Shown here: positions 24,771 to 28,740 of the stretch, piece by piece | Layout of the letters: every line of letters begins with the position of its first letter | Numbering within the stretch: the first letter of the stretch is position 1 | NCBI GenBank assembly: GCA_963663225.1 | Contig: OY760142.1 | Span: 2,240,001 to 2,304,000 of the forward strand | DNA length: 64,000 bases | Source of the DNA: Nitrospirota bacterium | Lineage (GTDB): Bacteria; Nitrospirota; UBA9217 | Direction: 5' to 3' | Translations under genes and position numbers: made by a program | Notes under the pieces: model-generated | What the model was told of the DNA's origin: nothing | Databases searched by the model: none | Seen by the model: only the letters and a program-made list of their open reading frames with translations

Positions 24771-25192
24771 CTTAAATCTATAAAACCATAATCTTGACTT
24801 TTATTATTATTGTATCAAACCTGCGACGGGATGTGGATACTGATGAATCTGCACTGAAGCCGATCAAGTTGGCTGGTATTAGCTTAATGTCTTATCGGTA
24901 GTATGTATATTATTATATATTCTTTAAAATATAATTTTCTTCCTGTTGTCGACACTTGGAACGATTGATCCTAGTATACAATTATGAAGTAGCATAGGTG
25001 GATGGAGAAGAGGTGTAAAAAAAATATCGCAGGCACCGTCGTGGGTGTTTTATTAACCGTCGGGCTGCAGTATCAATCCTTCAGCTCTGCAGCATCGCAT
25101 GCGACTTGTCGCCATTGATTCTGCAGCTGCGTTTCTCTGTAAAGGCTTCTCAATTCTGCTTGAAATATGCACAGATGATACGCAGAATGCTC

Positions 25193-25221
25193 TTGACAAA
25201 AAGGCCTTCTCGCTTTATCAT
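25193..25221 (+). promoter_or_regulatory. Sigma70 promoter of the ArsR/selenoprotein operon
   Basis: TTGACA (25193-25198), 17 bp spacer, TATCAT (25216-25221). Confidence 0.75.
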
Positions 25222-25239
25222 ATTAGTAATAACTCATAT
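25220..25239. promoter_or_regulatory. Putative ArsR/SmtB operator
   Basis: Inverted repeat ATATTAGT-AATA-ACTCATAT (one mismatch) overlapping the -10 box and expected +1. Confidence 0.62.
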
Positions 25240-25256
25240 AAGTGAAGGCTAATGTT

Positions 25257-25601
25257 ATGACATCTAAAATAGAAAAACTGGCAAAAATATTCAAAGTGCT
25301 AGGCGACCCGAACCGACTCACTATCGTTATGTCGATCGGCAAAAGCTCTCGATCGGTGACCGAAATCATTAATACTACAGACTTGTCTCAAACCTTGGTA
25401 TCCTTTCACTTGAAAGCGCTCCGAAATGCCTCAATAGTCAAAACAGACCGCAGTGGGCCATTTATTTATTACAGCCTCACAGAGCCGTCACTCATGGATA
25501 TTCTGGGTGAACTCACGCGCACGGTTTCTTCCATAGATTTAATAGGATCGAAGATACAGGTGGCAACCAACGGGCGGGGCTCTGACAGGAGAAGGAGGTA
25601 A
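25257..25601 (+). CDS. ArsR/SmtB family transcriptional repressor
   Basis: FKVLGDPNRLTI, LSQTLVSFHLKALR, GPFIYYSL. Start is ATG 25257 or GTG 25242. Confidence 0.92.
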   Translation: MTSKIEKLAKIFKVLGDPNRLTIVMSIGKSSRSVTEIINTTDLSQTLVSFHLKALRNASIVKTDRSGPFIYYSLTEPSLMDILGELTRTVSSIDLIGSKIQVATNGRGSDRRRR

Positions 25602-25603
25602 CT

Positions 25604-25849
25604 ATGTGGTGGAACGGACCGGGTCCAGGATGGGGGCCGATGTACGGCTGGTGGATCATGCCGATATTCGGGATTATTTTCCTGCTGATCATTCTTTTCA
25701 TCGTCAGCCGTTTTTTCGGCAGCGGGAACGGCTTCTGCGGCAAGCGAGAACGGCGGGATGATGACGGCATACTTGAACTGAAAAAAGAGATACAGGAACT
25801 TAAGGAAGAAATCAGGGAATTAAAGAACGCACAGGGCGGAGGCAAATAA
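25604..25849 (+). CDS. Small single-pass membrane protein with C-terminal coiled coil
   Basis: RBS AAGGAGG. G/W/M-rich N-terminus, one TM segment, ELKKEIQELKEEIRELK. Stop abuts the next ATG. Confidence 0.8.
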   Translation: MWWNGPGPGWGPMYGWWIMPIFGIIFLLIILFIVSRFFGSGNGFCGKRERRDDDGILELKKEIQELKEEIRELKNAQGGGK

Positions 25850-26329
25850 ATGGAAAAGGATAAAATCGGCGACATGTTGTCGCAGGTAAGCCCCGTTCAC
25901 AAAAAAGAAATACTCAATAACCTTATTGCCACCCTACTTAAAGACCTGAACGAAACTGATAAAAAAGAAGTATTTCAAGCGATTCTGACAGGAAGAAAAA
26001 ATTCAGGTCAAGTCATCGATATGGTTGAGCGCTGAATACAGGAATGCACGGATTCCGGCGTGAATCCTGTGGAGATGAGTAAAGAGGTTATTTCGGCCAT
26101 CAGCCATTCTTATGAACTTGCCACCTATTCTACACCTGAGCTACGGGGGCTTTTCAACGACTGGTTAGGAGAAATCGAACGAGAAATCATAGAATTTCTT
26201 TCGGAGAAAGATACGGTAGATCCAGACGAGGTTTCAAAGCATTTCAGGCTTGAACGCGAAAGTGCCATATTTATATTAAGCAGGCTAGCCCGTGAGGGCA
26301 AAATCAACCTTCAGGCATCGGGTACCTGA
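25850..26329 (+). CDS. Putative selenoprotein (159 aa, U62 in UxxxC) with wHTH-like C-terminus
   Basis: Track ORFs 25850-26035 and 26060-26329 share one frame, separated only by TGA 26033-26035 (MVER-U-IQEC). A SECIS-like hairpin follows. Confidence 0.72.
26047..26071 (+). promoter_or_regulatory. SECIS-like hairpin 1
   Basis: CACGGATTC-CGGCGT-GAATCC(T)GTG. Loop begins 20 nt after the TGA. Confidence 0.65.
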
Positions 26330-26355
26330 TGCACAGATCCGAGATAGAAGGGAGC

Positions 26356-26619
26356 ATGGACAATAAAATACTGAATACTGGAGCTATTACATCAGCGCTG
26401 GCCTATACGTTTTGCTGACAACTTGTTACAGTCCTAGCCGGTTTTGGGTTGGGAGGCTTCACCCCGGCAGTTTGGATAGATAAATACCGTTGGCTGTTTC
26501 TGGCGGTAGCGGTTGTGCTCCTTGCATTCGCCTTTTACCGGGCGTACAGGGACCGCGAAAAGACAAGCCCATGGGGATCAGGCTTTTGTAAGGAGCTTCT
26601 ATTCTCTGCCTTGTCCTGA
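26356..26619 (+). CDS. MerT-like mercury/metal transporter, putative selenoprotein (C20-U21), absent from ORF track
   Basis: RBS AGGGAG. MDNKILNTGAITSALAYTFC-U-QLVTVLAGFGLGGFTPAVWIDKYRWLFLAVAVVLLAFAFYRAYR aligns with the MerT TM1 CC pair and YRxxF...YR. TGA at 26416-26418. Confidence 0.8.
26432..26454 (+). promoter_or_regulatory. SECIS-like hairpin 2
   Basis: TCCTAGCC-GGTTTTG-GGTTGGGA (8 bp including 2 G-U). Loop begins 21 nt after the TGA. Confidence 0.62.
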
Positions 26620-26657
26620 TATTTTATTCCCTGCTGTAGAAGACAAAGGAGTTTACC

Positions 26658-28082
26658 ATGACAGACGATCTTAAAAAGAAAAGCGGCGGTGCTTCCTGCT
26701 GACCCCCCGATACTGATGCCGGTCGGCAGCAGAGCACTTGTACAAATGACGTAGAGCAGAAGCAGTCTAATACCGAGCACTGCATGGTTTGTGGCTCATC
26801 CCTGGAATACCTTGACCAGACAAGGCATATAACATGTTCATATTGCGGAAAGATCGAGGGCGGCCATATCATGTGCCCCAACGGTCACTATATCTGCGAC
26901 CATTGCCACAACCGGGGCGCAATGGAGATTATTCAAGATATTTCGCATATGTCAAACTCTAAAGACCCATTTGAGATTGCGGAATTGATGATGAGCTATC
27001 CAGGGCTTCCCATGCTCGGGTGCCAGCATGCCTACATCGCGAGCGGTGCGCTCATGGCCGCGATAAAAAATGAGGGTTCGCGGAGCATCACAAACAACGA
27101 TATGGATGAGGTCTTCAAACGCACCGAGAAACAAGCTCATGGCGGGTACTGCGGTCTTTCAGGCGTATGCGGCATCGCTCCAGCCATTGGGGCTTGCTTT
27201 TCAGTTCTTACCGGCTCAAAATGCGGCACCACCCAAGAGCAGCAGATCACCATGGAGGCTGTAACGCGTGTATCACGCGTTATCACCGACCTTACCGGCC
27301 CAAGCTGCTGCAAAGCATATGTGCGGGGTGCCCTGGAGGTTTCGGTATCGCTTTTGAAGGATAGTTTAAATATCATCCTGCCTTCGCCTAAAGAGAAAGC
27401 GACCTGCACTTACTCAAGCAAACATCCCCATGGCTGCCGAGAAGGACAGTGTCCGTATTTTGCTGTAACTGTAGAACCCACAAGAGCAGCCTTGAACATG
27501 AGTAAAGTACCTGTCTCACTAATCATAAGAAAAGTGGCTTCAACAGATAGCAAGATGAAAGAGTTATTAAAACGAGCTTTGGAGTTAGGCGCGGATAATG
27601 CAAAAATAATCTCCACTGATTCGGTTGTGGTAGAGGAGTGGGCCCGGTGGAAGTGCCAGTACGGATGCGCACTCTATGAAAAGGATGGCTGCCATCCACC
27701 CAATGCTCCTGATGCTGAAAGTACGAAGAAACTTATGAGAGAATACAGCACGGCCGTGCTCCTTAAGGGATCCAAGGGAAAAGCACTCACAGAAATTGCA
27801 GTTCGGCTTGAAGGAGAAGCTTACCATCAGGGCTACTATAAGGCATTTGCTTTAACGGCGCTTTCAAGCGGCGGCGGAAGCGGATCGACCTGACCCTCCG
27901 GCGATAAAGAGACTCCGGGTGAGTCTCAAAATATGGAACAGCAAAACATGAGAATCCGGCCTCTTATGGAAGCCTGCGGCATTGATGTTTTTAAGACAGC
28001 AAGAAACAACGGTTTTGAAATAGACACTAAAAAAGAAACATACGGTGGTTGGAATTACTTTGCACTTATTTTGGTGGAATAA
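26658..28082 (+). CDS. DUF5714-DUF2284 fusion metal-binding protein, putative double selenoprotein (474 aa, U15 and U412)
   Basis: RBS AAAGGAG before ATG 26658. TGA 26700 (GGASC-U-PP) is in frame with track ORF 26784. After TGA 27891 the frame continues with the DUF2284-type tail RPLMEACGIDVFKTARNNG...YFALILVE to TAA 28080-28082, which abuts the next ATG. Confidence 0.82.
26713..26732 (+). promoter_or_regulatory. SECIS-like hairpin 3
   Basis: CTG-A-TGCC-GGTC-GGCA-G-CAG. Loop begins 18 nt after the TGA. Confidence 0.55.
27909..27927 (+). promoter_or_regulatory. SECIS-like hairpin 4
   Basis: GAGACTC-CGGGT-GAGTCTC, perfect 7-bp stem. Loop begins 22 nt after the TGA. Confidence 0.7.
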
Positions 28083-28388
28083 ATGAAGATTGAATGTTAC
28101 CTATCACAAGGTTGCTCTTCTCTTGAAGAGCTAAAAGCAAATATCGAACAGGCGCTTAACATGTCCGGTATTAAAGCGGAGATGTATTATTATCAAATAG
28201 GCGATGAAGAAGCCGCCGAATTAAAACTGGCCGGTTCTCCAACGGTCTTGATAGACGGCAAAGACATTGCCCCGGGTGCAGCGCCGGGATTTTCCTGAAG
28301 AACATACCGTGACGAGTCTGGCAGGCTCGGCAATGTTCCTACGGTTGAAATGCTTTTAAAAGCACTTCTTGTTAGCAAAAAGCAATGA
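28083..28388 (+). CDS. Small thioredoxin-fold putative selenoprotein (101 aa, U72)
   Basis: GC near N-terminus, GSPTVLIDGKD, then GFS-U-RTYRDESGRLGNVPT. This matches the CRxY...G..GVP tail of small Trx-like proteins from mer/metal loci. TGA at 28296-28298. Confidence 0.82.
28313..28329 (+). promoter_or_regulatory. SECIS-like hairpin 5
   Basis: CGAGTCT-GGC-AGGCTCG. Loop begins 20-21 nt after the TGA. Confidence 0.65.
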
Positions 28389-28569
28389 AGTGAGCAGCGA
28401 ATCTCGGTGTCCCATAACTGCTTTATAGTAGAGCAGAGACATCATAAGTTGATCGGCATCAGCAAGGCCCAAGACGTAGTTTGTACATGATACAAATCGT
28501 ATTTAATGATACTTGCGCGTGATCAAAATTGCGGAAAAGCAGGTGAAGTCCGTATCGCATCTTTTTGAA

Positions 28570-28740
28570 TTACAGTGTATTATACGCAGTTTGTAAATAA
28601 GCTACAAGCTGAGTAACTGATTCGTGAAGCGAGTAATGGTTGAAAATTGCAACAAGCAAGCCGGCGACAAGGCAGCCTCCTGCGACCAATCCGAGAAATC
28701 GCGCAATCATCAGCATCATTTGAACATACAGTACCATCAT
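28570..28740 (-). CDS. Small hydrophobic protein (56 aa), absent from ORF track
   Basis: RBS AAGGAGG 8 nt before ATG. MMVLYVQMMLMIARFLGLVAGGCLVAGLLVAIFNHYSLHESVTQLVAYLQTAYNTL. Confidence 0.55.
   Translation of the reverse strand: MMVLYVQMMLMIARFLGLVAGGCLVAGLLVAIFNHYSLHESVTQLVAYLQTAYNTL

Follow-up and report, generated by a model that had tools for sequence, protein, structure and literature searches.

We found that mbdU, a gene at positions 26658..28082 (+ strand) of a 64,000-nucleotide (nt) stretch of Nitrospirota bacterium DNA, almost certainly encodes a member of the family NF045648 that is translated as one chain of 474 amino acids (aa), with both in-frame UGAs read as selenocysteine (Sec). 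The stretch, called the window below, covers positions 2,240,001 to 2,304,000 of the forward strand of contig OY760142.1 (assembly GCA_963663225.1; GTDB lineage UBA9217). The protein scored 750.4 bits against NCBIfam model NF045648.2, 'metal-binding double selenoprotein MbdU' (cut-off 600), and residues 12-474 aligned with positions 6-468 of the 468 model positions. This is a full-length match with two Sec and no structural difference from the family, so that the window protein is a member. A 2026 review (PMC13188914) lists the MbdU family with the table motif 'CU' and credits it to Haft and Tolstoy (2025, mSystems 10:e0141724). An earlier description made from the DNA letters, hereafter the original prediction, had called the protein novel; this was not borne out, given the curated model that it passes and the place of the family in the review. 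The window gene is thus a rediscovery, and because the family had already been named by NCBI, no new kind of system is added. In the literature searched, which did not extend to supplements or the primary family paper, we found no function for MbdU, no mention of DUF5714/PF18978, and only table entries for DUF2284/PF10050. As to the putative metal binding that the family name implies, the sequence shows conserved Cys/His patterns. Taken as a whole, the best explanation that we can offer joins the mbdU identity to a mechanism in which a metal or metalloid is relayed along Cys/Sec arms, and we give the combination a probability of about 0.5.

The ATG of mbdU at 26658 is preceded 7 nt upstream by a Shine-Dalgarno-like AAAGGAG, and the frame contains TGAs at 26700-26702 (U15) and 27891-27893 (U412). 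Gene calling with translation table 11 over the same DNA yielded only a 369-aa open reading frame (26784-27893). When both TGAs were translated as Sec, we recovered the single 474-aa chain with U15 and U412 that the original prediction had described, together with every motif quoted for it, namely CMVC, CSYC, CPNGHYICDHCH, GGYCGLSGVCG, GPSCCK, WKCQYGC, PP, GYYKAF, SSGGGSGST-U-PSG and RPLMEACGIDV. The two domain names given there were also right. In an hmm scan of the chain, Pfam DUF5714 (PF18978) matched residues 92-268 (26931..27461, + strand) with 156.4 bits against a cut-off of 26.2, and Pfam DUF2284 (PF10050) matched residues 316-472 (27603..28073, + strand) with 98.3 bits against a cut-off of 25. 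The DUF2284 match spans profile positions 1-160 of 161 and therefore requires the 62 residues beyond the second TGA.

The two TGAs could instead be stops, which would leave a 369-aa DUF5714/partial DUF2284 protein with unrelated leftovers around it, or a decaying gene. Gene callers do halt there: they cut MbdU-type proteins at both TGAs, and among 253 database homologues the best 120 span 48-81% of the query, from past the first TGA to just before the second. The original prediction had named homologues ending at 27891 as a ground for doubting the fused chain. Database proteins do end there, yet the frame remains open and conserved downstream at the DNA level, and the truncation is therefore an artefact of gene calling. 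We screened 401 genomes of the phylum for MbdU relatives, which were present in 65; a full-length mbdU with two TGAs inside the match occurred in 5 genomes, including that of the window, and partial copies occurred in 2 more. In an alignment of 8 orthologues translated from DNA (alignment A1; 59-74% identical overall), U15 was kept in all 7 sequences with an N-terminus and U412 in 8 of 8, with the conserved flanks 'SCUP' around U15 and 'G.(T/A)UPSGE' around U412. The 62-aa tail after U412 (RPLMEACGIDVFKTAR...NYFAL.L.E), which completes the DUF2284 model, was near-invariant among these orthologues.

A wider scan of named genome contigs, partly overlapping the 401-genome search, gave 80 loci, mostly from Nitrospirota metagenome-assembled genomes (MAGs), and 23 of them carried DUF5714 and DUF2284 in one frame. 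The loop Sec was retained in 22 of these 23 loci (exception, L075). The N-terminus could be read in 20, of which 19 had C-U (exception, L070; the N-terminus of L049 was counted from its twin L011). The upstream CC/CU extension, whose absence from homologues would have spoken against the original prediction, is thus conserved as C-U both in the 7 orthologues and in the wider set. At the N-terminus of its mbdU, L070 has G-U-D-U in place of C-U, which means two TGAs but no Cys there, and L075, from a Syntrophaceae MAG, has lost most of DUF2284. A homologue with Cys at the U412 column was found in P0123 ('GGTTCPTAPEETP').

Candidate selenocysteine insertion sequence (SECIS) hairpins with G/U-containing loops begin 13 and 18 nt past the two UGAs. 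The first (26713..26732, + strand; loop GGUC) has a 6-bp stem that was present in 7 sequences, with 2 of the 6 pairs changed on both sides in a compensatory manner. The second (27909..27927, + strand; GAGACUC-CGGGU-GAGUCUC) has a 7-bp stem that 6 of 8 orthologues keep entirely or almost entirely, L014 and L015 being the ones that deviate. At the protein level the stems correspond to the conserved peptides 'DAG.(H/Q)Q' (first) and 'ETPGESQ' (second), whose conservation is therefore probably imprinted by the RNA and not a property of the protein. In favour of stop codons, the single-sequence hairpin energies did not differ significantly from those of shuffled sequences (z 0.35 and -0.79), and an Rfam scan of 25000-28700 returned no SECIS or other relevant family. 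Against them stand the near-invariant tail, the loop TGA kept in nearly all loci, the conserved hairpins with compensatory pairs, the score above the curated NF045648 cut-off and the Sec machinery of the genome, in which selB (375.9 bits), selD (372.2 bits) and tRNA-Sec (62.8 bits) all exceeded their cut-offs. Together these leave the stop-codon explanation next to no chance. The selD gene (G000:C1:522565-523479) holds one in-frame TGA and is therefore itself a selenoprotein gene. A second match to the tRNA-Sec model (48.9 bits, cut-off 47; 144 nt, G000:C1:522308-522451) adjoins selD, and the best tRNA-Sec match lies elsewhere, at 3214210-3214304.

To describe the predicted structure, we used an AlphaFold2 model of whole MbdU built from a 99-row alignment (mean predicted local distance difference test score, pLDDT, 75.9; predicted template modelling score, pTM, 0.52). 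The model has two confident domains, and pLDDT falls below 50 at residues 1-4, 6-36, 166-169, 272-294, 405-417 and 419-422. Because both Sec fall in such stretches, U15 and U412 probably both sit on flexible segments: the N-terminal arm of residues 1-36 (26658..26765, + strand), which carries C14-U15 within the conserved 'SCUP', and the Gly/Ser-rich loop of residues 405-422 (27870..27923, + strand), which carries U412. Between the arm and the DUF5714 core lies a zinc-ribbon-like Cys/His segment, residues 42-84 (26781..26909, + strand), with the pattern CxxC, CxxC, C-x3-H-x2-C-x2-CH and weak matches to Pfam zinc ribbons. C60, C63, C73, H77, C80, C83 and H84 are invariant in this segment and C45 is near-invariant. 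The DUF5714 core, predicted to be helical, holds the invariant residues C122, C165, C171, C189, C217, C218, C250, H256, H258, C260 and C265. Folded alone, the DUF5714 domain reached pLDDT 85.2 and pTM 0.85 and was predicted as a zinc-ribbon-like hairpin pair followed by the helical core.

No known fold could be assigned to DUF5714. A PDB sequence search with MbdU found no solved relative (best E 0.47), Foldseek against the PDB gave no match at E <= 0.001 with either the whole model or the DUF5714 domain, and an ESM Atlas search with the domain gave no usable match. In VIA-align comparisons, which for the MbdU model covered 48,161 chains, the DUF5714 domain reached a best Z of 6.6, with CyuA at 6.4 and PrpD-type proteins at 5.4-5.5, and no clear fold emerged; the CyuA matches to MbdU or DUF5714 (Z 6.4-7.4) are middling for a helical domain. 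Relationships of DUF5714 to C_GCAxxG_C_C (PF09719; hhalign probability 0.4%) and to serine dehydratase alpha/CyuA (PF03313; 0.8%) were considered and dropped, both comparisons resting on shallow alignments. Weak Pfam matches to the C_GCAxxG_C_C/SDH_alpha families occurred in 2 of 32 DUF5714 members.

The DUF2284 half of MbdU was compared with its wider family. Searching 1.84 billion representatives with residues 296-474, without a profile, we obtained 761 matches at E <= 0.001, and we aligned 26 distant full-length DUF2284 representatives and 3 close Cys-type relatives with the window domain (alignment A3). Canonical DUF2284 (PF10050, 'predicted metal-binding protein') matches the MbdU domain end to end and shares KC.YGC and RP.MEACGIDV with it. 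However, in 22 of the 26 distant representatives the loop ahead of RP.MEACGIDV holds four Cys in an Fe-S-like arrangement (C-x2-C-x2..4-C...C), and all 26 have CPP or CPN after KC.YGC, whereas the window protein and the 3 close Cys-type relatives have a Cys-poor, Gly/Ser/Pro-rich loop and HPP or HAP instead. Thus, where the canonical domain has a C-x2-C-x2-C...C loop with CPP, MbdU has a Gly/Ser stretch with one Sec and HPP. U412 was placed by MAFFT in the column of the third loop Cys. The idea that a single Sec replaces the Cys-rich loop of DUF2284 was accordingly upheld, and C333, C337, H346, U412 and C440 are invariant in the DUF2284 domain of the MbdU clade. Judged from this alignment, the DUF2284 domain of MbdU is a divergent subclade.

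The predicted fold of this module is nitroreductase-like, as 44 of the 50 VIA-align rows were nitroreductase-like folds covering residues 291/297-474, with middling Z but a consistent list. Residues 291-474 matched the reductive dehalogenase NpRdhA (6zxu) with Z 8.9 and a root-mean-square deviation of 3.5 over 122 aligned residues, flavin mononucleotide (FMN) nitroreductases with Z of about 8, the epoxyqueuosine reductase QueG (5d6s) with Z 7.9, and BluB with Z 7.4. The likeness of MbdU to these enzymes is one of predicted fold only, with identities of 6-17%. RdhA and QueG combine the nitroreductase-like fold with Fe-S motifs.

From these features, we propose that MbdU may handle a thiol-loving metal(loid) (Hg, As, Sb or the like) in the cytoplasm by means of Cys/Sec relay arms, under the control of an ArsR-type regulator; we hold this function tentatively, at somewhat under even odds. 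The species would enter through, or be passed on by, a MerT-like membrane protein whose Cys-Cys pair in the first helix is here Cys-Sec, and the flexible C14-U15 arm of MbdU would then take it up and hand it over to the Cys/His-rich DUF5714 module. The DUF2284 module is nitroreductase-like in its predicted fold, retains a putative C333/C337/H346/C440 site, and bears U412 on a probably mobile loop that replaces the Fe-S-type CxxCxxC...C loop; it might then carry out a redox step, either reducing the bound species or regenerating the thiols and selenols. Two selenoproteins encoded nearby, one TsoA-like and one thioredoxin-like, could be further relay partners. Adjacent Cys-Cys or Cys-Sec residues on mobile arms pass metal or electrons to a buried site in the mer relay and in thioredoxin reductase. 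Both serve here as working analogies, in the first case from the Cys pair of MerT to the N- and C-terminal Cys pairs of MerA and in the second from the C-terminal Gly-Cys-Sec-Gly arm; MbdU has no homology to MerA or to thioredoxin reductase. We count in favour of relay and redox modules the occurrence of DUF2284-Sec in ArsM fusions, of AhpD-like CxxU domains fused to DUF5714, and of a Sec arm that is swapped between an N-terminal CU and a C-terminal CxxU. It is plausible, as had been suggested, that MbdU is a multi-metal-binding or redox selenoenzyme and the putative catalytic core of its operon. If the relay does operate, the operon would offer a tractable way of studying how anaerobic Nitrospirota and Desulfobacterota use selenium to detoxify or transform Hg- or As-like elements.

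The operon comprises six co-directional, tightly spaced genes, four of which encode selenoproteins with five Sec codons in total. A promoter-like site (TTGACA-17-TATCAT; 25193..25221, + strand), known from a consensus match only (11 of 12 positions), precedes it, and no operator-like inverted repeat was found near this site. The first gene encodes an ArsR/SmtB-type, TsoR-like regulator (25242..25601, + strand; NF033788 75.6 bits, cut-off 55; Pfam HTH_5), which scored 83.2 bits against the TsoR model NF045707, below the cut-off of 115. It is followed by a gene for a small predicted membrane protein of 81 aa that domain scans of the open reading frame placed in no family (25604..25849, + strand). 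The third gene encodes a TsoA-like selenoprotein of 159 aa (25850..26329, + strand) with Sec encoded at 26033-26035 (U62 in U-I-Q-E-C). It scored 99.6 bits against NF045695, below the cut-off of 170, and is the only such copy in the genome (93-100 bits against the TsoA cut-off of 170); the hairpin after its TGA has a predicted energy of -15.7 kcal/mol (z -2.15), and orthologues are 72-89% identical past the Sec. Immediately upstream of mbdU lies a gene for a MerT/MerC-like two-helix membrane protein (26356..26619, + strand) with a TGA at 26416-26418, which places a Cys-Sec pair in the first hydrophobic stretch. Its scores remain below the family cut-offs (Pfam MerT, 25.7 bits versus 32.9; NCBIfam merT, 28-34 bits versus 130-180), and it is the sole MerT-like match of the genome, in which no MerA was found above the cut-off (best 367.9 versus 454.45). 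Downstream of mbdU, a 101-aa thioredoxin-like selenoprotein of the DF family (28083..28388, + strand; Sec TGA 28296-28298) scored 63.9 bits against NF049942, just below the cut-off of 70, and 28 bits against Pfam Thioredoxin_3 (cut-off 24.8). The genes in the flanks, for a type II P-type ATPase, for BamD and for an ArnT-like protein, have no connection with metal resistance.

Among the 23 mbdU loci, many of which end short upstream, a TsoA-like gene was the most constant upstream neighbour (16/23), followed by an ArsR relative upstream (11/23), a MerT-like gene between tsoA-like and mbdU (7/23) and a relative of the 81-aa membrane protein (4/23). The DF gene was found downstream of mbdU at one other locus of the 23, L050, a named-contig copy of L010. 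We also considered a tso (three selenoprotein) operon and rejected it, because the genome holds no TsoB above the cut-off (best 66.8 bits versus 805) and no match to TsoC, although the TsoC model matched no control genome either; the TsoA-like protein itself falls below its cut-off. A complex prediction with MbdU residues 43-411 and TsoA-like residues 63-159 scored 0.00, which is no evidence either way.

Several observations weigh against the proposed metal(loid) relay. The ArsR/SmtB regulator of the operon has one His and no Cys, unlike thiolate-based sensors of As, Cd or Hg, and therefore lacks the usual thiolate sites through which to sense. Only 7 of the 23 loci contain the MerT-like gene, which lies under the Pfam and NCBIfam cut-offs, the flanks of the operon contain no ars or mer gene, and no homologue with Cys in place of Sec at the U15 position was found among the loci read. 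Furthermore, canonical DUF2284 resembles an Fe-S redox protein, and flavin or cobalamin is the cofactor of its fold relatives, so these data would suit an enzyme with an organic or sulfur substrate equally well. MbdU might then be a redox enzyme in which metals are only cofactors, namely Zn ribbons, Fe-S clusters within DUF5714, and a cofactor of the flavin or corrinoid type in the nitroreductase-like DUF2284. Its substrate would be a sulfur, selenium or organic compound (persulfide, polysulfide, disulfide or a selenium species), and the two Sec would serve as catalytic or resolving nucleophiles. The resemblance of the DUF2284 fold to reductive dehalogenase, QueG and FMN nitroreductases (Z 7-9) suits such an enzyme, as do the CxxCxxC...C loop of the canonical domain, the thioredoxin-like and UxxxC selenoproteins as partners, and DUF2284 fusions to O-methyltransferases, HD and HAD, which are not metal-specific. 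That ArsR/SmtB relatives include sulfite and persulfide sensors points the same way; the BigR model reached 51.2 bits, below its cut-off, and the regulator here has no Cys. However, the Fe-S-like loop is precisely what the MbdU clade has lost, and the MerT-like membrane protein with its Cys-Sec pair, as well as the fusions to ArsM, suggest soft metal(loid)s. We regard a redox enzyme of this kind as unlikely, with a chance that is nonetheless real.

MbdU could also act without chemistry, as a high-affinity metal sink or chaperone for sequestration or delivery, or as a sensor that acts jointly with the TsoA-like protein, which is winged-helix-like, and with the ArsR that has no Cys. Approximately 25 conserved Cys/His and two Cys/Sec arms would suit such a role, the regulator has no thiolate site of its own, and the TsoA-like protein shows a weak match to a leucine-zipper DNA-binding family (18.7 bits versus a cut-off of 95). 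Two costly Sec insertions are typical of catalysis, however, and the enzyme-like nitroreductase fold and the methyltransferase fusions suggest turnover, which makes a purely binding role distinctly improbable.

Both halves of MbdU also occur in other combinations. Residues 290-474 scored 308.4 bits against NCBIfam NF041536 (arsenite methyltransferase/DUF2284 domain selenoprotein), whose DUF2284 module has Sec at the same loop position as in MbdU, whereas its N-terminal module is ArsM rather than DUF5714; the window protein is not a member of NF041536, because the whole-protein score is under the cut-off of 575. Metagenomic fragments that start with the C-terminus of ArsM stop at the same 'G(A/S)T' followed by TGA. 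Cys-type DUF2284 was seen fused to an O-methyltransferase with a dimerisation domain, a TehB-like methyltransferase, HD and HAD (P0260, P0292, P0335, P0242, P0281 and P0303), and, given such varied fusions, the domain seems to serve small-molecule enzymes generally as an accessory module. Proteins made of the N-terminal C-U arm and DUF5714 alone also exist (L018-L020 and L025), and an AhpD-like domain is present in 6 of 32 DUF5714 proteins (alignment A4). One gene (L017:1501-2649), which has a MerT-like gene upstream, encodes three Sec: one in an N-terminal C-U arm preceding DUF5714, one in the C-Q-P-U of an AhpD-like domain, and one in a C-terminal G-S-T-U-T-P-K. Its C-terminal part scored 117 bits against ArsM_AhpD_UU and 99 bits against MduS, both below the cut-offs.

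A broader proposal would make DUF5714 the catalytic Cys-cluster core of an uncharacterised Se-dependent pathway by which anaerobes deal with thiol-loving metal(loid)s. The Sec arm would be attached in at least two ways, as an N-terminal C-U or a C-terminal CxxU tail, and the Sec redox modules (DUF2284-U and AhpD-like CxxU) would be interchangeable and also used by ArsM and other methyltransferases. Where a genome lacks MerA, MbdU and the MerT-like Cys-Sec protein would together provide a MerA-independent route for Hg- or As-like species. We consider this generalisation speculative and rather improbable.

The C-terminal tail is found in DUF5714-only paralogues without the N-terminal arm, which are encoded at 17 loci (L021-L024 and L026-L038) from the taxonomic family of the window. 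Tail-type paralogues end in C-x-[ST]-TGA-[KR]-x(1-3)-stop, that is, in a C-terminal CxxU (e.g. L032:1531-2283). Their gene neighbourhoods clustered noisily and had no consistent partner. RNAalifold gave no consensus for their 3' hairpins, the loops being out of register; when folded singly, 16 of the 16 foldable paralogues had a hairpin of the CCGUCC-GGUC-GGACGG type 13-22 nt past the tail TGA. No NCBIfam model scored above its cut-off for the tail-type or triple-Sec DUF5714 proteins, the tail-type reaching 350-368 bits against the MbdU cut-off of 600. Both forms may therefore be unannotated selenoprotein variants, and they are, together with the pattern of module swapping, what we find most worth following.

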